15,018 nucleotides of DNA from Candidatus Altarchaeum sp. (GTDB lineage Archaea > Altiarchaeota > Altiarchaeia > Altiarchaeales > Altiarchaeaceae): positions 1 to 15,018 of the forward strand of contig JAGWDQ010000009.1 in NCBI GenBank assembly GCA_018260615.1, read 5' to 3'. The notes beneath the pieces are model-generated. The model was not told the DNA's origin, ran no database searches, and worked only from the letters and a program-made list of their open reading frames with translations. The position numbers and the translations under genes were made by a program. Shown here piece by piece: positions 1 to 13,331 of the stretch (positions within the stretch are counted from its first letter, which is position 1; every line of letters starts with the position of its first letter).

Positions 1-72
1 GACACAATGCATCGGATGTTTTAAATTACCTATACAATTACAGCGAGCAGAGAACCCAGGAAATGTGCAAGG
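1..72 (+). repeat. Near-identical intragenic direct repeat, copy 1 (truncated by window edge)
   Basis: 1..72 matches 295..366 at 69/72 nt (mismatches at 56, 60, 61). Offset 294 nt = 98 codons, in frame. Confidence 0.97.
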
Positions 73-3000
73 TTGCAGTTATAAACGGAACCGTAACGGC
101 AGATGAAACAACGGATGACTGTTCCGGACCACAAACAGCTGCGGTAAATGTAAAAGTTGAATTAATAAATGCATCATCAGCAACAGGAGCGGTTGTAAAA
201 TCAACATTTACAAACAGTTCAGGTAAGTTTAAATTCGTAGATATTCCCGAAGGCGACTATACTTTAAAATACTCAAGATCAGGGCTGATTCCAAGACACA
301 ATGCATCGGATGTTTTAAATTACCTATACAATTACAGCGAGCAGAGAACTCAGCCAATGTGCAAGGCGTGTTCCGTAACAGTTCATATTAACGATACAAT
401 CGTAAACAACCTACAAAATGTAAGAGTTGACTTAATAAAACTTGGAAATGTAATTTACGAAACAAAATATACGGATGCCAATGGCAATGTGTCATTCTCA
501 AATATTCCAGATGGGGACTATTATGTAAAGGCAAGCAAGTATCAGTACTTAACCTACATTGGAAACCTATCTCACTATAACGAAACAGAGTGTGAAATTT
601 ATTCTCTTACTTTGGATAAAGCGTGTATAATGAACATAAATGTAACTGACAATGCCAGTAATCCGATAGAAAATGCCCAGGTTAAATTATTCGCTGAAAA
701 TGGCACCTTAATAACATTAAGATATACAAATGCAAACGGAACAGTACAAATTTCCGGAATTCCGACAGGAAATTATTACGCAAATGCCACAAAATCGGGA
801 TATACAACAGCAAGTAGCATTGATAATGGTTTACAATTCTACAGCGAGGAAACATGTGGAGATATTGTGCTTAAAATTTCATTGAAGGAAACGGTAGAAG
901 TATGCGTAAATGATACAAATAACAATCCGCTTCAAGGCGTTAAAGTTGATGTGATCAGAGTAGCAGACAACCAAATTGAAAAAACATTATATACAAACGC
1001 AACGGGATGTGTGATATTTAATAACATTCCTGATAACAACTATTATATTAATGTTTCCAAACCAGGGTATGTAAGCGATAAGAGTGATACATTTACATAT
1101 TCGGAAACACAGGGATACTTTAAGCCATTCCAGCTTCTTGAGAAGCCAACTATTAGCGGAACAGTTACGGATGCGGCAACTAACCATACAGTTAAAGGCG
1201 TTTTGGTGCAATTATGTGATTTAACCGGAACATGCATTATGAATACAACAACTGATATCAATGGGACATATAAATTGGTTGAACTTCCGGAAATGGGACA
1301 ATATAAGCTTGTATTTAGCAAATTTGAATATAATACAGAAGAGGTTGACAACGCTGATGGAAATCCGATAAATTTGGATGGACTTGCCTCTTATGAAATA
1401 AATGTCTCTCTTGGACAGAAACCAAATATAGATGGTTATGTTGATACAAATACAACAACTCACATTAAGTATTTGGAAGGAGTTACTGTTCAGTTAGATA
1501 GAAATTGTAATGATGTTGCAGACAATGTAACCACAACCGATGCAAACGGATATTATGTATTTGTTGCCCCCGCTGCCGGCGATTATAAACTTAAATTTAT
1601 AAAGCAGGGATACCTTGTAGGAGAATCAAATTGCACAAATTTCAATGCATTTAATCCGCTCGAAATTAATATGACTCTTGATAAAGCACCGTCAATAGAC
1701 GGTTATGTAACTAATCAAAACAATAAGACAATTAAAGGAGCAATTGTAACATTAGATAAGGACTGTGATGGAACAATTGAAAATACAACAACAACAGATG
1801 TTAATGGATATTATATATTTGAAAGTCCGGAAGCACCGCCGTCAGGAGTGAAATATTGTATAAATGCAGAAAAAACAGGATATATCTCTCCGGAAATGCC
1901 TTCCAATATTACATTCTCAAATGCACCGTATGAGGTTAATATTTCACTTACCTTGAAACCATCAATCTATGGTTATATTACAGAAGAAGACAATATCACC
2001 CCAATTCAGGGGGCAGAGGTTGTTCTGGATAAAGAATGTAATGGAATTGATAATTCAGATGCTCATCAAATGACTGACAATTCAGGATTTTTCATATTCC
2101 AGCAGCCAGATCCAGGACAATATTGTATAAATGTCTCAAAGGCAGGATATGTTTCAAATGGAGCCGCTCCACCAGAAGTGCCATTTTTTGATGGAACATC
2201 TGAACTCGAAGTAAATATTTCATTAGCAAAGTCATCTGTAAAAGCGAAAATCTACGGTCACATTTATGACAATGAAACAAACGCTCCAATTCAAAATGCA
2301 CTTGTTGAATTATATGCAAACTGCACCACAAACATGGTTTCCATAAATTCAACTTATACCGATGTTAATGGATATTATGAATTTACTCCACAACAAGGAG
2401 ATTACTGTGTAAAGGTTAGCAAAGCAGGATATAATTCCGAAGAAGAAAATTTTGCGACAGACAATGCATTTGGAACATTCACCGGAACATCTAATTTCAT
2501 ATACGACTTTAAATTAGTTAAATTTACAACTCCTTATATAGAGGTCTGTGTGTATGAAGAAAATGCCACGCCTGTTAAGCCATTAAGTGAAGTATTGGTT
2601 GAAATTTATAACGGAAGCAGCATTGTAACAGCAAATAATACTGGAACAAGCGGATGTGTGAGATTTTATAACATTTCAGCAGGGGACTATACAATCAAAG
2701 CATCAAAATCAGGATATGTGTCTAATAATCTTTCAATATCCTATCCGGGGGGAGTAATTGGGGAATATGAAATAAATTTAACAACACCTGGATATATGAA
2801 AATCTGTGTAGTGGATGCTAAAGACAACGAGACGCCGATTATAGGTGCAGAAGTAAATATTTCAACACCCGGAATTGCAAAGAGTAACCTTACAGGGAAT
2901 GACGGTTGTGTAATATTTACAAATATAAGCAGTGCGAATTATACTATTCTTGCTTATCACAAATATTATGAAATAACAACTGAAAGTTGGTTGTATAGTG

Positions 3001-6000
3001 ATGGAGATAGAGCAGATATTAATTTATCTCTTGGTGCCAAAGCATGCAACACAACAGATATAAACGGAAAGGTTGTACAAAATGGAAATCCGGTTGCAGG
3101 GGCAAATGTTACGATAATTGATAACGGCACTGTGATAGCAACAATAATCACAGGCAGCGATGGTGTATATTCCTTTAATGTTCAAAATCCCGGAAATTAT
3201 ACGATTAACATATCATCTGATAATTATACTGCTATAGAACTAAATTTAGAAATTCCTGAAGGCATATGTACTCTTGCCATTTCAGAGGCATACACAGCAG
3301 TAAGACAAAAGCCGGATTGCACTGGTCTTACTAATGCAACTGTTATATACGGATATGTAAAAGATTTAGAAAATATAGGGATTAACGGATCAGCCGTTGT
3401 TGGAGAATTGTCCAATTATACAGGGGGATTGGGAAGCAGTGCTGTTTCATTAACATCAAGACCAAACACAATGACTATCGGTGAAGATGGATATTTTGAA
3501 ATGTTGGTACCTTATGGAAGTTATAATTTAGTTGCATCTTTGTCAGGCGGTTTGTTAGGTATGCAAAAGAATCAGTCAGAACTTATAAATGTGAGCGCAA
3601 CATCGGGATGTCCGGTATATGCAGGAACTATATATTTATCCAAAGAGGTTGAAGTAAGTGTTAATGCAGAAGTTACAAGAATATGTGGTGGAAATACAAC
3701 GCAGGAGATTACCGTAAAGGCAACAGCAGAACTAACAAACGCAAATTTAACTTTGAATTATTCAAACGGAACTACGCAGATATTTGCAATGGATTGTGAT
3801 AAGAAATGTACTAAGAAACTAAGCATTCCCAATGCAGACGGAGGAAATTACTCTTTTGTAATTTCTGATATTGTTGATAAATTTGGAAACAAATATCCGG
3901 ATGCAAACGGAACATTTACAGTTGCTACAAAAATTCCTCAAATTTCGATATCATCACAGTTGCTTGAAGGAAACAATGTGTCTGCAAACATAGTTATAAC
4001 CTCAGAAAACAATATATCAGATATATCCGTTGAAATTTTAAATACAAATAATCAGACATTGAATGTTAATGTAACTATAAATGACAGCAAAGCAAGCGAA
4101 AAGAAATATGTGGCGACATTTAATACAGAAGGTTTAAGCACTTATATTATAAGAGTTAATGTAACTGATTCGTGTGGCAGTAAGGCATCAAAATCAACGC
4201 TTGTCAGGTATGCAGAGGTCTATCCTCAAACGGTGTCATTCTGCGGCGAAGGAAAGTGCTTTGATGGCATGGGTTCGGGGTATGGTGCAGATAACGGACA
4301 AAGAAATGACCTGTTTTCTACAGTATTTTTCAAGAACTCTTCAAAACTCAGTGATTTAACAGGCATTACCGGAAAGAATGTAACAGACGAAATTCCAAGA
4401 GTATGGAGAGAAGCAAGGTCAGTAGTTAATTATAACTCACTTTATTATACTGCTTATGAAGAATGGCAGAATGATATTCCAAAGGTATATGTCAAGGCAT
4501 ACAATTCTGGTACTGATACTTCAACTAAAATTAATATTAATGGATTATCAAATGCAAATGTAAAATCATACAAGCCATATTTACATAGAGGTCCGTATGA
4601 TTGGTTCCTGGCTTATGTTTCAAACGAATCAGATGCGATGGGAGGAGTATATGTAGCAAAATATAACAATAACTTTAACGAGCAGGCAAAAGTATCTATC
4701 GGTGTTGGAACGGATATGCCGGTAGTGACTGTTTGCGGTAGTTATCCTGATGAAAAGGTCTATGTTGCATACCAGTTCTCTGATAACATTTATGTAAAGA
4801 TATATAATTACAACCTTGTATTTTTAGAAGATAAAAACATAACAAATTTCACAGGAGAAGTATTTAGTGCCGAAGCACCGTCTATCTTATGTGGTGGCAA
4901 TACAATTTATTTGGCTTATCAGGTAAATAAAAAACTTCCGGAAACAACAAGAATGGAGTGGGAGTCAAATTTCAAAGATGCAAATGGCGACACAATATGG
5001 GTTTACATGTTGGTAAATAAAACAGAAAACAAAATATTTATTGACAAATATGATATTAACCTGAATTCTGCAACTGGAAGTAACAATGCAACCATTGAAG
5101 TTATAGATAAAAAAGGAGGACAGGGAATTCCGGCAGCAACATTACCTAATATCGTTGCATACGGAAATAACAAATATATTACCTTTATAACCGATAGCGA
5201 CTTATTTATAAGGAAATATACAAGCAGTTTCACGAGCACTACTTTATCTACTGAGGATAGTCAATATTTGGCTTATTTGAATCAGTCAATTTCATCAGTT
5301 TCAAAGCCATTTTCAATTCAGCTTGAATACACAATAAACTGGCAACTGAGAACAGACATGGTAAACAACAGCAAAAACGAAACATTTATGGCAACCGTAG
5401 TAAAAACACAAAGCGGAGACATCATTCATATTAAAAATATTTCCAACGGTAATGTAACTACTGTTCTGAATGAATCCGGAAGTGAGCCGGCCATAAATTA
5501 CTATGATGGAAAGTACTATTTAGCTTATGTAAATAACGGAACAATAATAATTGAGCAATACAATGAGTCAATGAAAGAAACAGGACTAAATGCAACAATA
5601 CAAAATGAAAATGCATCTTCTCCGTCAATAACAATAAAAGATAATGTGACTTATATTGTATATTTATCAAACAAATCCGGAACAATGAATGTATATATGA
5701 ACAAATACAATATGTCGTTAATCTTAAATGAAACAACCAACATAACAAAATTCATTAATACCTCTGATGTCAACCCAACGCCATTCATCAAACCGCAAAT
5801 TTATAATGAACTTGATTATGTCGTCTTTGAAATTTCAAGCAGCAGGCAAATAGGAGTGCCATGGGATCCAAGACCTGAAATTGATATAAATGGTGAAAAA
5901 CTTGAATTTGACGCCAAAGATGGAGTTGTAAATACAAAATTGGCCTTGTGGAAAATAAATTCATCGTTCGGAATAAAAGAAGCGAGCAATATTACAAAGG

Positions 6001-8921
6001 GTATAAATTTTGTTGAAATAAATGTTCCTTTCCATGCAAATTACACTGAAGAGCAGTTGTATGATGAAGTCATAAAACAAAAGCCGAAAATAAGGGGTGT
6101 GATTTCAACATCTTATGGCGTGGATTTGAAAGATGCTGTATCACTTAACTATCCATTAACTGTAACTAATAAAATAGGTGAAGTTTATTATTTAACCTAC
6201 ACACAAGGTAACAATGTTAAATTTATGAAATTTAATTCAACATCAGGAACAGGTGCAAGTTTCAGCGTTGGAAGCGGAAGTCATCCTGCAATTTATTATA
6301 AAGACGGAGTATATGTTGCTTACGAAACAGGAAATAATAAGGTAGTAGTAGCAAAATATGACGAGAACGGAACACCAAAATCGAGCATCACAAGTAATAT
6401 ATCTGCTTATAGGCCATCAGTAACAAGCGTAAATGATAATATTTTTGTAACATATCTTACCCAGGCGGGAGAAGTTAAAGTTACACAATGCGTTTCAAAT
6501 TTAACCAATTGTTCAGATGTAAAAACAATATCTGCAAATATAAGCAATGTTAACACAATTGATGTTCCGCCGCAGCTTGTCTATAAGAACAATTATTTCT
6601 ATGTAATTTATCAGATACTTCAAAATGAAACAAATACAACGACAACACAAAAATTAATAGAAAGCACTTATCAAAATGAACCATTAACATTTACAGAAAT
6701 AATTACAGCAAAGGATATAATATCTATTGCAGAAAGATATACTTCGTCTTGGGAGGATTCAAGTGTCGGAGGGGACTTACTTGATGGTGTTGAATTAGAC
6801 AGAAAAGTAACAACTTATGGGGAAAGTAAAGTTGATAATAATGAGTCATATTACGGCAATAAAGAAGAGTTGGATCAGACCTACGGAGCATGCTCAATCA
6901 ACAATAATAACAATAACTTTATGTACAGCACAACTGTAAGGGATTACTTCAGATACAACCTGCCATCACCTTATATAAATGTAACAACTTCTATAACAAA
7001 TATCTCAAAGATAACAGTAAAGGACTATTCAGGAGAAGAAATAACGCTTGAAAATATAACTACAAATGAGAATGTGACATGCAGTAATGTAAGTGCAACT
7101 GCTCAGAAGTGCAGTATAAAGCTCAGCCAGTTATCCAAATTTAAAGGAGATGAAATAACAAAAGACAAACATTCAAATATATATTCAATTCAGGTAAAGG
7201 TTGAAAATGAAACAACAAGTGAAGAATTTTTAGGAACTATGACAATGGGTGATAATATTTCGCCAACAGTAGATAATGCATCAGTAATTATAAGAAATTA
7301 TGCAACCGGAAACACAACATTGAAGCTTGGTGATATGGCATACATCGCTTTAAATGCGAATGATTCAAATATAGCATTTGTTAGGATTTTTGCATTTGCT
7401 AATTGTACATATTACAATAACGATACAAACATGAATGTTACCGTATCCGGATGGGATATAAACAATCAATGCAAGGAGATAAGGTCGTCATCATTGCTTA
7501 TGGATAAGGATGTGAACAAGAGATTTGACAATTTATTATCACCTTTTGCTCTTCCGGATAAAATAAACGATAAATATAACATTACCTCCTGTAACATAAC
7601 CTTCCAGTTTGCCGTTTGGGATATGTGCTGTAATGTTTATTCCTTCTCTCCGGATCCAAGCAAAAAGAAATACTTTGAATTTTCATTGTTTAATTTGGTG
7701 CGAGAAGGAGCAGGTGCGGGAGAAGGTCCAGGGCCGGGAGGAGTTCCATGTCCAACTTGTTCACAACAACCAACACCAGCAACACCAGCACCAAGCACCG
7801 GAGGTGGCGGAGGTGGCGGACTTACAACATCTCAATTACCCTTAACAGCAACAGAACCAGTAACAACCGAAAAAGGTGTCTTTAGATCAGCAACTATAAC
7901 AAATTACACTTTAAAAGTAGTTAATATAACCGCAATGGAAGAAAACAAATCATTTACAGTCAAAGTTATAAATGAAACATATACTTACAACATAACTTAT
8001 AAGCAAATAAATACAACCAACGGAACAAGATGGGCAGAAGTTAATACATCTTTAGTTAGTAAAGCGGAAATTCCTGTTGAACGTGCAAATGTAGAATATG
8101 CCGAACAAACAGCAGTAACCGGAAGTGACGGAACAACAGTTATTTCAAAAGCAGTGGTTGGAGTTTATGATATAAGGGCAACAAAAGAAGGTGCCGAGGC
8201 AAGAACAACAACAATAGTTGAGCAGGTAAAACCAAAAGCAGAGGAAAGAGAAATTTTAACTATCACATCATTAAAAGGAGACAAAGAAAAGGAAGGAATT
8301 TATGAATTTGAGGTCAGGGACAAAAAAGGAAATTTAGCCGCAAACAGAGAACTTGTCGTCAGATTGCCGGATAATACAACGCAAAAGGTTGTTACAGACG
8401 AACATGGAAGATTCACTCTGACAATTAACCAGTCAGGATACATAACTGTAGAACAGCAGGAATATGCGGATTACACAGTTGAACGTTTTAAATCACATGT
8501 GGAAATAGAAGAACACAGGTTGCCCGATTTATGGATATGGTTTTTATTGTTGCTGCCATTATTGCTACTAATTTATCTGCTCCTGTTCATGATGAAAGGA
8601 AAGGTTGAAATAACAAAGGAAAGAGGAAACGGAAAGGTTGTAATTACTGTAACAAACAAAACACATAAGACACTTGATGCGTGTATGCTTGAAGATATTA
8701 TTCCTCTGGGCTTGCAGGTAGAAACAATTACGCAGGGACTTGAGAAGACCGCAATGGGCGATACTCTGATAATGAATCTTGGTAATTTAAAGAAAGGAGA
8801 AAAAAGAATAGCAGAATATAAAATTGTAAATGCAGAAGGAATTAAAGGAGCGGGTGCGAAGGGACTTCCGGAAGCAAAGGTTGTATGGAGTAATGGCGAG
8901 CAGCGCTCCAAAAATACATAA
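3..8921 (+). CDS. Giant membrane-anchored cell-surface glycoprotein/adhesin (5'-partial; >2,970 aa in window)
   Basis: The frame of the 63..8921 ORF is open from nt 3 (HNASDVLNYLYNYSEQRTQE-MCK), so ATG63 is internal and the start and signal peptide lie upstream. It has repeated ~85-100 aa beta-sandwich modules, very dense N-x-S/T sequons, paired Cys, a Gly/Pro linker and a 22-aa hydrophobic helix near the C-terminus. Stop TAA at 8919-8921. Confidence 0.92.
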   Translation, partial: HNASDVLNYLYNYSEQRTQEMCKVAVINGTVTADETTDDCSGPQTAAVNVKVELINASSATGAVVKSTFTNSSGKFKFVDIPEGDYTLKYSRSGLIPRHNASDVLNYLYNYSEQRTQPMCKACSVTVHINDTIVNNLQNVRVDLIKLGNVIYETKYTDANGNVSFSNIPDGDYYVKASKYQYLTYIGNLSHYNETECEIYSLTLDKACIMNINVTDNASNPIENAQVKLFAENGTLITLRYTNANGTVQISGIPTGNYYANATKSGYTTASSIDNGLQFYSEETCGDIVLKISLKETVEVCVNDTNNNPLQGVKVDVIRVADNQIEKTLYTNATGCVIFNNIPDNNYYINVSKPGYVSDKSDTFTYSETQGYFKPFQLLEKPTISGTVTDAATNHTVKGVLVQLCDLTGTCIMNTTTDINGTYKLVELPEMGQYKLVFSKFEYNTEEVDNADGNPINLDGLASYEINVSLGQKPNIDGYVDTNTTTHIKYLEGVTVQLDRNCNDVADNVTTTDANGYYVFVAPAAGDYKLKFIKQGYLVGESNCTNFNAFNPLEINMTLDKAPSIDGYVTNQNNKTIKGAIVTLDKDCDGTIENTTTTDVNGYYIFESPEAPPSGVKYCINAEKTGYISPEMPSNITFSNAPYEVNISLTLKPSIYGYITEEDNITPIQGAEVVLDKECNGIDNSDAHQMTDNSGFFIFQQPDPGQYCINVSKAGYVSNGAAPPEVPFFDGTSELEVNISLAKSSVKAKIYGHIYDNETNAPIQNALVELYANCTTNMVSINSTYTDVNGYYEFTPQQGDYCVKVSKAGYNSEEENFATDNAFGTFTGTSNFIYDFKLVKFTTPYIEVCVYEENATPVKPLSEVLVEIYNGSSIVTANNTGTSGCVRFYNISAGDYTIKASKSGYVSNNLSISYPGGVIGEYEINLTTPGYMKICVVDAKDNETPIIGAEVNISTPGIAKSNLTGNDGCVIFTNISSANYTILAYHKYYEITTESWLYSDGDRADINLSLGAKACNTTDINGKVVQNGNPVAGANVTIIDNGTVIATIITGSDGVYSFNVQNPGNYTINISSDNYTAIELNLEIPEGICTLAISEAYTAVRQKPDCTGLTNATVIYGYVKDLENIGINGSAVVGELSNYTGGLGSSAVSLTSRPNTMTIGEDGYFEMLVPYGSYNLVASLSGGLLGMQKNQSELINVSATSGCPVYAGTIYLSKEVEVSVNAEVTRICGGNTTQEITVKATAELTNANLTLNYSNGTTQIFAMDCDKKCTKKLSIPNADGGNYSFVISDIVDKFGNKYPDANGTFTVATKIPQISISSQLLEGNNVSANIVITSENNISDISVEILNTNNQTLNVNVTINDSKASEKKYVATFNTEGLSTYIIRVNVTDSCGSKASKSTLVRYAEVYPQTVSFCGEGKCFDGMGSGYGADNGQRNDLFSTVFFKNSSKLSDLTGITGKNVTDEIPRVWREARSVVNYNSLYYTAYEEWQNDIPKVYVKAYNSGTDTSTKININGLSNANVKSYKPYLHRGPYDWFLAYVSNESDAMGGVYVAKYNNNFNEQAKVSIGVGTDMPVVTVCGSYPDEKVYVAYQFSDNIYVKIYNYNLVFLEDKNITNFTGEVFSAEAPSILCGGNTIYLAYQVNKKLPETTRMEWESNFKDANGDTIWVYMLVNKTENKIFIDKYDINLNSATGSNNATIEVIDKKGGQGIPAATLPNIVAYGNNKYITFITDSDLFIRKYTSSFTSTTLSTEDSQYLAYLNQSISSVSKPFSIQLEYTINWQLRTDMVNNSKNETFMATVVKTQSGDIIHIKNISNGNVTTVLNESGSEPAINYYDGKYYLAYVNNGTIIIEQYNESMKETGLNATIQNENASSPSITIKDNVTYIVYLSNKSGTMNVYMNKYNMSLILNETTNITKFINTSDVNPTPFIKPQIYNELDYVVFEISSSRQIGVPWDPRPEIDINGEKLEFDAKDGVVNTKLALWKINSSFGIKEASNITKGINFVEINVPFHANYTEEQLYDEVIKQKPKIRGVISTSYGVDLKDAVSLNYPLTVTNKIGEVYYLTYTQGNNVKFMKFNSTSGTGASFSVGSGSHPAIYYKDGVYVAYETGNNKVVVAKYDENGTPKSSITSNISAYRPSVTSVNDNIFVTYLTQAGEVKVTQCVSNLTNCSDVKTISANISNVNTIDVPPQLVYKNNYFYVIYQILQNETNTTTTQKLIESTYQNEPLTFTEIITAKDIISIAERYTSSWEDSSVGGDLLDGVELDRKVTTYGESKVDNNESYYGNKEELDQTYGACSINNNNNNFMYSTTVRDYFRYNLPSPYINVTTSITNISKITVKDYSGEEITLENITTNENVTCSNVSATAQKCSIKLSQLSKFKGDEITKDKHSNIYSIQVKVENETTSEEFLGTMTMGDNISPTVDNASVIIRNYATGNTTLKLGDMAYIALNANDSNIAFVRIFAFANCTYYNNDTNMNVTVSGWDINNQCKEIRSSSLLMDKDVNKRFDNLLSPFALPDKINDKYNITSCNITFQFAVWDMCCNVYSFSPDPSKKKYFEFSLFNLVREGAGAGEGPGPGGVPCPTCSQQPTPATPAPSTGGGGGGGLTTSQLPLTATEPVTTEKGVFRSATITNYTLKVVNITAMEENKSFTVKVINETYTYNITYKQINTTNGTRWAEVNTSLVSKAEIPVERANVEYAEQTAVTGSDGTTVISKAVVGVYDIRATKEGAEARTTTIVEQVKPKAEEREILTITSLKGDKEKEGIYEFEVRDKKGNLAANRELVVRLPDNTTQKVVTDEHGRFTLTINQSGYITVEQQEYADYTVERFKSHVEIEEHRLPDLWIWFLLLLPLLLLIYLLLFMMKGKVEITKERGNGKVVITVTNKTHKTLDACMLEDIIPLGLQVETITQGLEKTAMGDTLIMNLGNLKKGEKRIAEYKIVNAEGIKGAGAKGLPEAKVVWSNGEQRSKNT
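63..3644 (+). repeat. Array of 13 diverged carboxypeptidase-regulatory-like / Cna-B-type (prealbumin-fold) modules within the giant protein
   Basis: Recurring pattern I-x-G-x-V-x-D...P-I-x-G-A-x-V-x-L...T-x-T-D-x-N-G-x-Y-x-F...G-x-Y-x-I-x-x-S-K-x-G-Y...I-N-x-S-L, counted 13 times. Many units carry Cys pairs (VEVCV..TGCV, DKDCDG..KYCIN, KECNG..QYCIN, ANCTT..DYCVK). Family name assigned by pattern recognition. Confidence 0.8.
295..366 (+). repeat. Near-identical intragenic direct repeat, copy 2
   Basis: GACACAATGCATCGGATGTTTTAAATTACCTATACAATTACAGCGAGCAGAGAAC is identical to 1..55, and the match continues to 366. Confidence 0.97.
4437..6614 (+). repeat. About 12 beta-propeller-blade-like repeats within the giant protein
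   Basis: Repeated P-x-I-x(3-5)-Y-(L/I/V)-(A/T)-Y-x(4-7)-(I/V)-x-(I/V)-x-K-Y-N motif, e.g. APSILCGGNTIYLAYQ, EPAINYYDGKYYLAYV, SPSITIKDNVTYIVYL, HPAIYYKDGVYVAYE, RPSVTSVNDNIFVTYL, PPQLVYKNNYFYVIYQ. Confidence 0.65.
7707..7820 (+). other. Gly/Pro/Thr-rich flexible linker with a CPTC motif
   Basis: Encodes GAGAGEGPGPGGVPCPTCSQQPTPATPAPSTGGGGGGG. Locally GC-rich, with GGAGGTGGC x2 + GGA at 7800-7820. Confidence 0.85.
8529..8594 (+). other. Single transmembrane helix of the giant protein
   Basis: LWIWFLLLLPLLLLIYLLLFMM (22 hydrophobic residues) followed directly by KGKVEITKER, consistent with positive-inside. Confidence 0.9.
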
Positions 8922-9065: not shown

Positions 9066-9425
9066 ATGTACCAAACACCACCAGAAAAACTTAAAAAGAG
9101 AGGAAAGAGGAAATATGAAATTGCACGGGAGCCGGCAAATACATCAATCGGAGAGCACAAAATAAAGAAAATAAGAGTAAGGGGAGGAAATATAAAAAAT
9201 CGTTTATTGTCTGAAAAATATGCAAATGTCCTGATTGACAACAAGTATGAGAAGTGTGAAATTTTATCTGTTGTTAATAATCCTGCAAACAGGAACTTCG
9301 CAAGGGCAAATATAATAACAAAAGGAGCAATCCTGAAAGTCAGGAGGGATAATAAAGAAATAGAAGTTAAGGTTACTTCAAGGCCGGGACAGGACGGAAT
9401 TATAAATGCTGTTTTACCGGGTTAA
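9066..9425 (+). CDS. rps8e: 30S ribosomal protein S8e
   Basis: S8e motifs [44 protein letters not shown] and [16 protein letters not shown]. Confidence 0.96.
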
Positions 9426-9479
9426 ATTTTATGATTAAAGTCAAAAATTTTATTGATTAAATTTATTTATTATTATAAA

Positions 9480-10901
9480 ATGAGCAGGAGGTCAAAAGAG
9501 AACGAAAACGAGATTGTCATTAAAAAAAAGAAGAAAAAGGATAAAATTGACATATCTATACTTGTTTTCGAGTGGAATAATATTCCCGGGAAGGACGAGA
9601 AAGGTCTTAGAAATTATTTAAAGACAAATTTCTTTGTGGACTGGAGCGAAAAGGCAAAAATTGAAAAAAGTAAAGATAATAAAACCATTATTGCATCGCA
9701 TGATGGGCACAGCATAAAATTTCAGCTTGATGAGGTCGGACATCTGTTTAATTTAAAGGCACCTTACCGGAATTATATAAAAGAAGGGATAATAAGCGAG
9801 GAATTAAGAGACGGGTTTTATCAAAACAAGGTATTTCTTCCTGCAAGGGCGGAGGTTAAAAAAATAAAAGACAGCGAATGGAGAGTTATATGGAACAGAA
9901 CAGACGGAATGACTGATATTTATAAGATAAATGACCTGGGAGATAATACCTCCGAAAGTATAGAAATATATTGTGAGGGCAGAGTATTTGTAGAAAACGA
10001 TGATAAGGTAAAGGAAATTTTAATTATCCGGAAAAAAGCAGGCGAACTTTTAATATATGATAACCTGATTATCCTGGAAAATATTGTGGCTTCAATAACA
10101 ATTAATTTAGACGGAGTAAAGTCGGAATACATTAATAATAATAACCGGTTAGATATAGAAAATATCATAGAAAAGGACTATATGGAGATTTTTATGAAAG
10201 GAATACGGGAGAAAGATGTAGAAAAGATCATAAATTGGGAGGAGATTGTAAAAAAAGAGGAGGAGGAAAATAAGTATATAATCATGTTTAGGGAAAGAAT
10301 GAAGGAACTAATAAAAGAAATAAAAGAAGGAACGACAGATAAAGAAAAAATAGACGAAAGTACGGGTCTTTTCAGGAAAACAATAAGGAAAGTGATAGAA
10401 GAAGGAAATATAGAAAAAATTATAGCAAAGGATGCGCTGACATTTCTTTATAATAAATCAAGATTTCCCGGCATTGTGTTTCGTCTGAAGGATTTACAGC
10501 TGGCAATGTTATTGTTTGATTCAGGAAGTGTTATATGTACAGGTGCGGGAAGAGAAGAATTTGTTCAGAAAGCAAAGAATCGTTTAGTTGAAAAATTAAA
10601 GGAGTTTGATATAAATTTAAACTCTGAGCCGAGAATAGAACTGCAGAATATAGTTGCTTCAACAATGTTTTATCCGAAGATAAATTTGGATATGCTTGCG
10701 GACTATGACGAGAACACAGAGTATGAACCCGAGCAGTTTCCCGGACTTATTTATAAAATTGCCGAGCCAAAGACAGTGATGCTTGTTTTCAGGTCGGGAA
10801 GGATAGTTATTACCGGAGCAAAAAGTGTTGATTTTGCAATTGAGGCATCAAAAATGACCAAGAAGGCAATAATGGATGCAAAGGCGTTGATACATGAGTA
10901 A
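9480..10901 (+). CDS. tbp: TATA-box-binding protein family member with long N-terminal extension and large insertion in repeat 1 (~473 aa)
   Basis: Both TBP repeats are present: ENIVAS...YNKSRFPGIVFRL...AMLLFDSGSVICTGA and QNIVAS...EYEPEQFPGLIYKIAEPKTVMLVFRSGRIVITGAKS. The ORF track starts at TTG 9453; the first ATG (9480, MSRRSKE) is preferred. Confidence 0.9.
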   Translation: MSRRSKENENEIVIKKKKKKDKIDISILVFEWNNIPGKDEKGLRNYLKTNFFVDWSEKAKIEKSKDNKTIIASHDGHSIKFQLDEVGHLFNLKAPYRNYIKEGIISEELRDGFYQNKVFLPARAEVKKIKDSEWRVIWNRTDGMTDIYKINDLGDNTSESIEIYCEGRVFVENDDKVKEILIIRKKAGELLIYDNLIILENIVASITINLDGVKSEYINNNNRLDIENIIEKDYMEIFMKGIREKDVEKIINWEEIVKKEEEENKYIIMFRERMKELIKEIKEGTTDKEKIDESTGLFRKTIRKVIEEGNIEKIIAKDALTFLYNKSRFPGIVFRLKDLQLAMLLFDSGSVICTGAGREEFVQKAKNRLVEKLKEFDINLNSEPRIELQNIVASTMFYPKINLDMLADYDENTEYEPEQFPGLIYKIAEPKTVMLVFRSGRIVITGAKSVDFAIEASKMTKKAIMDAKALIHE

Positions 10902-10960
10902 TGATTTGATGAACAACCTCAAAAACTTATCAAAAATAAAGGGAGAATTAGTTTTTGGAC

Positions 10961-11056: not shown

Positions 11057-11398
11057 CTTGACTTTGTCATATTTCAAAACATCATCTAAAAATTTAAAAT
11101 TTTTAAAGCCGAAAATTGCCGAAATACGAATTTAAAATTTTTATTTTTAAGCAATAAAAAAATCACACAGATTTTTTTAGATTGAAAACTCAAAGTTTTC
11201 AGTATAAAGCATTTAAAATTTTGGTAGTGATTAAGAAGTAAGGTTCTTACAAATAAATTCCCGGATAAATCACCTCGCTTACACTCGGAGATTTTTGAAA
11301 ATTACATGTTTTCAAAAATGTCTGTAATTTAAATGTAAATGTTAACATCCAACCTTACATGTTTATCACTACCAAAATTTTAATCTGACAAAGTCAAG
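11057..11398. mobile_element. Putative outer MITE (non-autonomous; 13-bp perfect TIRs, 4-bp GTAA flanking duplication)
   Basis: CTTGACTTTGTCA (11057-11069) and TGACAAAGTCAAG (11386-11398) are perfect reverse complements. GTAA lies immediately outside both ends (11053-11056, 11399-11402). No transposase is encoded. Confidence 0.5.
11223..11373. mobile_element. 151-bp MITE with IS1/IS1595-like GGTAGTG ends and 8-bp target-site duplication
   Basis: TIRs GGTAGTGATTAAGAAGTAAGGTT (11223-11245) and AACCTTACATGTTTATCACTACC (11351-11373) match at 20/23. AAAATTTT flanks both ends (11215-11222, 11374-11381). Internal 11-bp hairpin ATTTTTGAAAA/TTTTCAAAAAT at 11291-11319. Confidence 0.72.
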
Positions 11399-12632: not shown

Positions 12633-12890
12633 ATGATCGAACAACAAATGAAAATAGGTCCAAAAGGGCAGGTAGTAATCCCAAAAGCATTTAGGAAATT
12701 TTTGGGCATATATCCCGGTTCTGATGTGGTTTTTGAACTTAAAAAAGAAGGCATTTTAATAGAAAAACAGGCCACAAATGTTGTTGAAATATTTGACAGA
12801 ATTGCAAGGAGCGGGAAGTTAAAAACGTTTGAACAAGATAAACAATATGAAGAAGAGATTGAACACAGGTGGAGGAAAGTTAAAAAATGA
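12633..12890 (+). CDS. vapB: AbrB/MazE/SpoVT-family antitoxin (VapB-type)
   Basis: N-terminal swapped-hairpin motif KIGPKGQVVIPKAFRKFLGIYPGSDVVF; 85 aa. ATGA overlap with the downstream PIN gene at 12887-12890. Confidence 0.9.
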   Translation: MIEQQMKIGPKGQVVIPKAFRKFLGIYPGSDVVFELKKEGILIEKQATNVVEIFDRIARSGKLKTFEQDKQYEEEIEHRWRKVKK

Positions 12891-13299
12891 TTTATATAGA
12901 TTCAAATGTGTTTATCTATGCCGCCCTTTATCCGGATGTTAAAGGTGATAATGCAAGAAAACTTATCAATAAAATTGAAAACGGAGAAGTAACCGGAGCT
13001 ACCTATTCACTGACATTTGATGAGGTTTTCTGGATTGTAAAAAAAGAACGCAATTTTGATATGGCTCTTGAAGCGGGAAAAGCACTTCTTTTAATGCGAA
13101 GTCAAAATTTCTAACTGTTGACAATAGTGTAATCTGGCAGGCGTATAATTTAATCAGCGAATATAAACTTGATCCAAGGGATGCCATTCATGCTGCATGT
13201 GCTCTTATTCATGGTGTTTATACAATAATATCAGAAGATGATGACTTTGATAGAATAAAAAAGTTTGAAAGAAAGGGTTTGGATGATTTGGACTTGTGA
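12887..13299 (+). pseudogene. vapC: PIN-domain toxin (VapC), split by a -1 frameshift near 13103-13111
   Basis: The first frame gives MIYIDSNVFIY...TFDEVFW... and stops at TAA 13112-13114. The -1 frame continues KFLTVDNSVIWQAYNLISEYKLDPRDAIHAACALIHGVYTIISEDDDFDRIKKFERKGLDDLDL* to TGA 13297-13299. Joined length is ~137 aa with the PIN acidic residues present. Confidence 0.85.
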
Positions 13300-13331
13300 C
13301 ATTGGCACGGATTGTTGTGGTCCGATTGTTC

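Follow-up and report, generated by a model that had tools for sequence, protein, structure and literature searches.

The TATA-binding protein (TBP) is a textbook example of a compact, insertion-intolerant fold, and the N-terminal extensions of eukaryotic TBPs are variable, lie ahead of strand S1 and are mostly of low complexity. Canonical archaeal TBPs, including those of M. jannaschii (2Z8U), S. acidocaldarius (1MP9) and P. woesei (1PCZ/1AIS), are near-symmetric proteins of ~185 aa, with two repeats, Asn and Phe residues contacting DNA and an acidic C-terminal stirrup. Archaea use only TBP, TFB and TFE for initiation (PMC7289017); in eukaryotes, TFIIA and Bdp1 dock on the N-terminal-stirrup side of TBP, beside upstream DNA (PMC5526994). 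Among mobile elements, the IS66 ISBst12 group and its MITEs have terminal repeats starting with GTA and duplicate 8 bp of the target (PMC11946415, PMC12898284), and A. hamiconexum has the highest MITE density among archaea on record (PMC11602168). Rickettsia palindromic elements (RPEs), ~150 bp in length and about half of them intragenic, are selfish DNA that inserts in frame into unrelated genes and adds a conserved peptide to their products (Ogata 2000, 2002, as reviewed in PMC10969869).

The window analyzed here, a stretch of 15,018 nt from a Candidatus Altarchaeum sp. genome (GCA_018260615.1, contig JAGWDQ010000009.1), encodes a 473-aa TBP without this compact, near-symmetric form (Table 1). 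PF00352 recognizes it in two stretches (134 bits vs. a cut-off of 22.9), and its best PDB sequence matches are canonical archaeal TBPs, aligning with 2Z8U and 1MP9, while NCBIfam PRK00394 (canonical archaeal TBP) gives at best 147.5 bits, below its cut-off of 181. The protein shares the two repeats, the Asn and Phe contacts and the acidic C-terminal stirrup with canonical TBPs, but is ~2.5× longer, owing to an N-terminal extension of ~195 aa and, within repeat 1, a 12-aa loop and an 86-aa helical insert. From the Asn codon to the stirrup Tyr codon, repeat 1 spans 123 codons (10080 to 10449) and repeat 2 spans 25 (10647 to 10722), the latter being also the repeat-1 spacing in 7/7 canonical TBPs of the class. 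The 98 extra residues and their 12 + 86 split are exactly those of the original prediction, made from the letters of the window, and the N-terminal extension with its K6 tract was likewise confirmed. The DNA-contacting Asn, the four Phe and the acidic C-terminal stirrup are invariant across all long TBPs. However, the Lys after the second Phe motif of repeat 1, which we take from established TBP structures to be a DNA-backbone contact, is replaced by Ser, and is lost in the whole clade of long TBPs, intermediate and paralogue. The N-terminal stirrup is basic, as predicted, but a basic residue at this place is already common among canonical TBPs of the class.

Table 1 Features of the tbp locus, in window coordinates.
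Feature	Position	Strand	Evidence
rps8e, upstream neighbor, marker of the orthologous locus	9066–9425	+	Same neighbor in all long forms and the 338-aa intermediate
tbp gene, 473 aa, principal TBP of Ca. Altiarchaeum	9480–10901	+	ORF, two PF00352 repeats, homologues, tree
Basic N-terminal head with K6 tract (9522–9539), predicted disordered	9480–9560	+	K6 retained down to 62% identity; dN/dS 0.21
N-terminal part of module A, an old copy of an IS66-type MITE that codes for protein; own ends eroded	9561–9740	+	nhmmer E 6e-12; E 8e-18
Module B (~77 aa), lying within a hairpin of module A; belongs to another coding MITE family, probably related to that of A	9741–9971	+	Same site as the nested second A in RadC
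Module A, C-terminal part, stops directly before strand S1	9972–10058	+	Homology to other module A copies
Strand S1 of repeat 1 with DNA-contacting Asn (10080)	10065–10106	+	dN/dS 0.30
Loop insertion of ~12 residues, 3' of S1	10107–10145	+	Common to the 338-aa intermediate and the paralogue; dN/dS 0.36
Helix H1, first copy	10146–10178	+	25-nt direct repeat, 88%
Helical insert: ends are repeats of each other, indel-rich middle, net acidic	10179–10409	+	dN/dS 0.40; homologues only in these TBPs
Helix H1, second copy, leading into S2	10410–10433	+	NCBIfam TBP profiles put H1 here
Remaining repeat 1: basic N-terminal stirrup (10443–10472), both Phe, helix H2	10443–10628	+	dN/dS 0.17
Repeat 2, canonical, acidic TFB-binding stirrup (10719–10745)	10629–10898	+	dN/dS 0.09

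A bridging contig of 1,912 nt from a second sample of the same study covers positions 9156–10902 with 3 differences, and the same architecture is present in 3/3 other genomes of the genus (77–80% identity) and in seven clusters at 90% identity (417–476 aa), two of them named Candidatus Altiarchaeum/Altarchaeum. Given this contig, these genomes and these clusters, the gene is real and a chimeric assembly, which the original prediction had named as a possible source of error, is not its origin. One of the long TBPs is annotated as hypothetical, and long TBPs are under-annotated. The long form is genus-wide in Ca. Altiarchaeum (455–476 aa) at the same rps8e–tbp locus, with rps8e upstream in every long form checked, and is the only TBP found in two of the three congeners (G001 and G003, 85 and 87% complete); a contig end of the third (G002) carries a different TBP fragment, which is decayed. 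Counting tbp genes in the genome of the window (G000), as had been proposed, revealed a second TBP of 317 aa with an intact module A (L002:811–1764; G000:C84), which is more degenerate than the long form, with proline/glycine motifs altered in both stirrups and a longer branch. The long TBP is the housekeeping, or principal, TBP of Ca. Altiarchaeum and not a specialist.

The N-terminal extension consists of the basic head followed by a domain of about 87–88 aa, module A (residues 28–87 and 165–193), in which a second domain, module B (residues 88–164), is nested. Module A occurs in many unrelated proteins: in this genome it lies in frame in 11 other ORFs, whose products include Lon, two RadC, Cas3, a rhomboid protease, a kinase and a PIN-domain protein, and no copy was found here outside ORFs or in antisense. 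In RadC, a second copy of A is nested at the very site where B sits in TBP. A profile search retrieved 1,992 protein clusters at 50% identity, and module A is also present in genomes of ANME-1, ANME-2, Methanoperedens and Freyarchaeota; it is absent from the TBPs of other families. Pfam, NCBIfam and PDB yielded no family match for it. Its predicted fold (pLDDT 95.7) places two helices on a five-stranded meander, for which a fold search gave a best Z of 4.9 in the PDB (none ≥5) and a best TM of 0.58 in the Atlas, demonstrating neither novelty nor kinship. Overall, the N-terminal extension is made of mobile modules that are not specific to TBP.

Young copies of module A carry 14-bp terminal inverted repeats (13/14 matching), and in four pairs of orthologues between congeners, one genome has the element where the present genome has an empty site. 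Across 55 copies, some of them kin, flanking 8-mers matched at 0.50 compared to 0.33 when shuffled (z 8.7, only in that register), as expected for an 8-bp target duplication, and 18/55 copies had ≥6/8 matches. The element measures 246–306 bp (~260 bp) with a length of 3n+1, so that together with the 8-bp duplication the reading frame is kept. Other class genomes contain single-ORF IS66 transposases (PF03050, 449–464 aa) bounded by the same 14-bp repeat: at two loci (L213, L225) the repeats around PF03050 ORFs are identical to those of module A, two others (L207, L209) are complete IS66 elements with perfect 8-bp duplications, and the terminal-repeat motif was counted 14 times over 74 kb of IS66 loci vs. 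once over 83 kb of control loci. Because of these inverted repeats, target duplications, filled and empty pairs and transposases with the same ends, we conclude that module A is a protein-coding, non-autonomous IS66-family (ISBst12-type) MITE encoding a self-contained folded alpha/beta domain. The shared ends further suggest mobilization by an IS66 transposase; a search of this 87%-complete genome returned no such gene. A TA duplication (IS630) and an IS1595 origin, both considered as alternatives, were set aside in view of the 8-bp duplication and the IS66 transposase ends. In a synonymous-codon test, rare codons were kept along the whole element and the ends were not singled out. The copies of A and B in TBP are assigned by homology since their own ends are eroded, that of A having 3/8 duplication matches.

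Module A thus resembles the MITEs of the ISBst12 group in its repeats starting with GTA and its 8-bp duplication, the autonomous partners here having a single ~450-aa transposase, but differs from them in that it encodes a folded 87-aa domain, was observed solely in frame within genes, can nest within itself and has here become a fixed part of a general transcription factor. It works like an RPE, through in-frame insertion into unrelated genes, but is not one: it is larger (~260 bp), codes for a whole domain, is matched to a transposase family and has spread across distant archaeal lineages. Non-coding elements are found as well. Elsewhere in the genome are six IS66-type MITEs whose ends are related and whose 8-bp duplications are perfect (C15:720–1030, C26:10330–10708, C37:3086–3343, C60:49913–50075, C124:19294–19612 and C130:22028–22396), and a nested MITE pair lies between tbp and trpD at 11057–11398 of the window, with outer 17-nt and inner 33-nt inverted repeats, the outer part recurring at 96–99% identity on five other contigs and the inner part at 93–97% on four.

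Module B was detected in 21/61 class genomes in varied hosts, and was gained by TBP on another, independent occasion in a different family, where it sits in the inter-repeat linker (L033, L036 and L239, from G030, G033 and G048, with the congener G014 lacking it). Its left end is like that of module A and its right end has decayed. The signal for an 8-bp duplication reaches z 3.6 over 22 partly related copies, the TBP copy having eroded ends and 3/8 matches, and a profile comparison of A and B showed only the last strand to be shared. Module B probably moved in the same way as A. It is also carried by a 1,878-aa protein with RNA polymerase domains (P0226; PF00623, PF00562).

For the helical insert of repeat 1, searches found no match to modules A or B and no homologues outside these TBPs, and Atlas feature searches with the extension and the insert gave scores ≤0.83 only. 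Helix H1 occurs on both sides of it, in copies spaced by 85 codons and with 18–20 of 27 nt identical between them in four genomes; the predicted position "after H1" is therefore indistinguishable from "before H1". The extra block is indeed helical by prediction, with three to four helices. The conserved ends of the insert align with each other (hhalign score 25.1 vs. 19.9 for the best of 150 shuffles), and the insert is net acidic in 7/7 sequences, with indels in its middle, invariant F298 and R299 across long TBPs, and a conserved basic helix at its end. It differs in origin from the extension and, on the simplest account, arose by local duplication followed by expansion. A full-length AlphaFold2 model from a shallow, 10-row alignment (pTM 0.56; TBP matches at E 1e-10 with an rmsd of ~10 Å, saddle halves undocked) was used for secondary structure only.

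Next, we compared TBPs across the lineage. In a tree of the core only, the long forms, a 338-aa protein (P0009) and the paralogue formed a 100/100 clade nested among canonical TBPs of the class, and the insert was present in all genomes of the genus, in line with the lineage-wide distribution that the original prediction had proposed to check. The stem branch of this clade is long (0.67), indicating that the TBP core also changed, and the exact sister is unsure. In other families of the class, TBP frames span ~180–230 codons, except for three at 274–283. P0009, from the same rps8e locus, shares the basic head, module A and the loop with the long forms but lacks module B and the helical insert, and repeat-1 Asn-to-Tyr spacings are graded from 25 codons (canonical) through 41–42 (loop only) to 105–127 (long forms), with 80 to 102 extra repeat-1 residues among relatives of the 473-aa TBP. 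This intermediate and these graded spacings show stepwise growth, in which a canonical ~185-aa TBP gained the basic head, an N-terminal module A and the ~12-aa loop on the lineage stem, module B was later inserted within module A, and duplication and expansion of the H1 region gave a helical protrusion of 80–100 aa. Other long archaeal TBPs were also collected (P0047–P0051, P0016, P0010 and P0011): Theionarchaea TBPs have ~130 residues in the linker, one protein has two inserts in repeat 1, and two have three repeats, possibly as assembly artefacts. A metagenome scan for long TBPs returned, among the matches listed, canonical TBPs only. Inserts in TBP recur in uncultured archaea, and the Altiarchaeum TBP is the most extreme among those examined here.

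We then evaluated selection on each part of the protein through dN/dS, as simple counting estimates from four related sequences, one per genome. Values were lowest in repeat 2 (0.09), followed by the repeat-1 core (0.17), i.e., repeat 1 evolves twice as fast as repeat 2, a further difference from canonical TBPs; the head (0.21), module B (0.24), module A (0.28), S1 (0.30) and the loop (0.36) were intermediate, and the helical insert was highest (0.40; 0.48 in its middle). Every segment keeps its frame with dN/dS well below 1, and purifying selection acts on each of the added parts, which are fixed throughout the genus, with an invariant K6. Metatranscriptome contigs from a close relative span the extension, S1 and the core, and extend into the insert from either side in that relative's own sequence, no splice joint being seen at the long tbp in these contigs; the gap in mid-insert reflects the divergence of the relative. 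As contigs of a relative, these data give neither level nor strand and may contain DNA. All parts of the long TBP thus appear to be translated and constrained, and the original reading of a functional, asymmetric TBP with its additions away from the TFB-binding C-terminal stirrup is supported by the low dN/dS of both repeat cores and by RNA without a joint. However, the dN/dS of module A in Lon (0.26–0.28) is the same as that of A + B in TBP (0.24–0.29), so that constraint on A and B shows no excess particular to TBP.

Taken together, these patterns are probably best explained by a housekeeping TBP that was enlarged stepwise by tolerated accretion on its TFB-free face. The protein would be made at full length, S1 and one H1 copy would rebuild the N-terminal half of the saddle, and the intact C-terminal stirrup would recruit TFB as usual while the protein bends TATA DNA. 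The additions may survive because they lie at the N-terminus and at the H1/S2 edge of the N-terminal lobe, the side used by TFIIA and Bdp1 in eukaryotes and presumably without an obligatory partner in archaea; selection would then mainly keep them folded and in frame, and in a MITE-dense genus such partner-free sites would collect insertions that fold on their own. Tolerated accretion is likelier than the fused regulator of the original prediction because constraint on A in TBP equals that in Lon, and the TAF-like appendage proposed with it fares no better, the N-terminal modules being mobile. Accretion that is neutral does not by itself predict that TBP, TFB and TFE are all enlarged in the genus (TFB ~505 aa, TFE frames of 243–272 codons), with RpoB and 11/12 other comparators normal in this small sample. 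This enlargement would fit a domesticated appendage, i.e., parts that now form a built-in TFIIA/Bdp1-like arm, whose K6 head and basic insert helix would bind DNA on the upstream side of the TATA box or interact with the enlarged TFB or TFE, and so stabilize initiation on very AT-rich promoters at low temperature. The attachment of the insert close to the N-terminal stirrup, a region that Bdp1 and TFIIA occupy near upstream DNA (PMC5526994), the invariant K6, F298 and R299, and the clade-wide loss of the repeat-1 backbone Lys are also consistent with such an arm. Yet TFIIA and Bdp1 (SANT) are separate proteins with no sequence or fold likeness found to the insert, whose regulatory role is putative; sequence searches and a fold search with module A (best Z 4.9) found no homology to TFIIA, TAFs or DNA-binding folds; the insert is net acidic and indel-rich with the highest dN/dS; the 338-aa relative does without B and the helical insert; and A + B are no more constrained than in Lon. 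We therefore regard domestication as unlikely, though the helical insert or the K6 head may have a function, and similarly doubt a wider remodeling of Altiarchaeum initiation, in which transposon-derived domains and a duplicated helix would form a TFIIA/Bdp1-like arm co-evolved with the enlarged TFB and TFE; if true, it would be a prokaryotic case of mobile DNA building new basal transcription parts.

The promoter-selective TBP of the original prediction, for which the long form would serve a subset of promoters and the second TBP would do the housekeeping, as in haloarchaeal TBP/TFB combinations, could draw on the two TBPs and four TFB-like genes of this genome and on the combinatorial TBP/TFB use known elsewhere (PMC7289017). 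It is nonetheless improbable, as the degenerate copy with altered stirrup motifs and a longer branch is the paralogue, which was not found in G001 and G003 (85–87% complete), while the long form is syntenic, conserved and transcribed, i.e., the main TBP. Even less credible is an artefact or an insert that is removed, by chimeric assembly, as an intein or through RNA splicing, to leave a short TBP: the module ends are complementary and could pair in RNA, and the full-length model lacks a closed saddle, but independent assemblies and the bridging contig agree, no intein Pfam family was matched and the Cys/Ser start and the His-Asn end before Cys/Ser/Thr are all absent, RNA contigs cover the modules and enter the insert without a joint, and the frame is kept with dN/dS well below 1 everywhere. 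Removal at the RNA level, which the original prediction had also raised, finds no support in these contigs.

An abundant genus of subsurface, groundwater archaea relies on a TBP that has received three additions, the order of which is readable from living intermediates; two of them go back to transposon derivatives that code for protein and whose transposase family is identified. Compared to eukaryotic TBP extensions, this one is made of two mobile domains that are folded, and the saddle is interrupted as well. The case shows concretely how mobile DNA can furnish essential proteins with whole folded domains, and it marks places on TBP where insertions are tolerated. It also shows that mobile DNA can be taken up even by the most compact of transcription factors. 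We found no description of such a TBP in the searchable literature, which leaves out most subscription papers, consistent with the undescribed variant originally suspected.

Several observations were made on the other initiation factors and on the remainder of the window. The main TFB (L280:200–1714; G000:C109) is 505 aa long with ~185 residues inside the zinc ribbon, between two Cys pairs, in 4/4 genomes of the genus; this insert resembles the modules by eye and matches neither module profile, and its predicted complex with the TBP additions (22–322) scored 0.00, which is evidence neither way. Two genes of this genome (L114 and L116; G000:C101) encode TFB cyclin domains fused to helical repeat arrays, which take the place of the zinc ribbon, and TFE alpha (G000:C4:1092–1835) is 248 aa long with a Lys-rich N-terminal extension, compared to mostly ~180 codons in the class. 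In a promoter scan upstream of tRNAs and 758 genes, the signal was swamped by AT content. Within the window, positions 12633–13300 hold an AbrB/MazE-type antitoxin and a PIN (VapC-like) gene, the PIN frame of which stops at 13114 and continues in another frame, and thus looks frameshifted. Positions 3–8921 encode a surface protein of >2,950 aa that contains numerous carboxypeptidase-regulatory-like repeats together with a C-terminal membrane anchor; it is syntenic in relatives, and a 19-residue segment is repeated near the window start.
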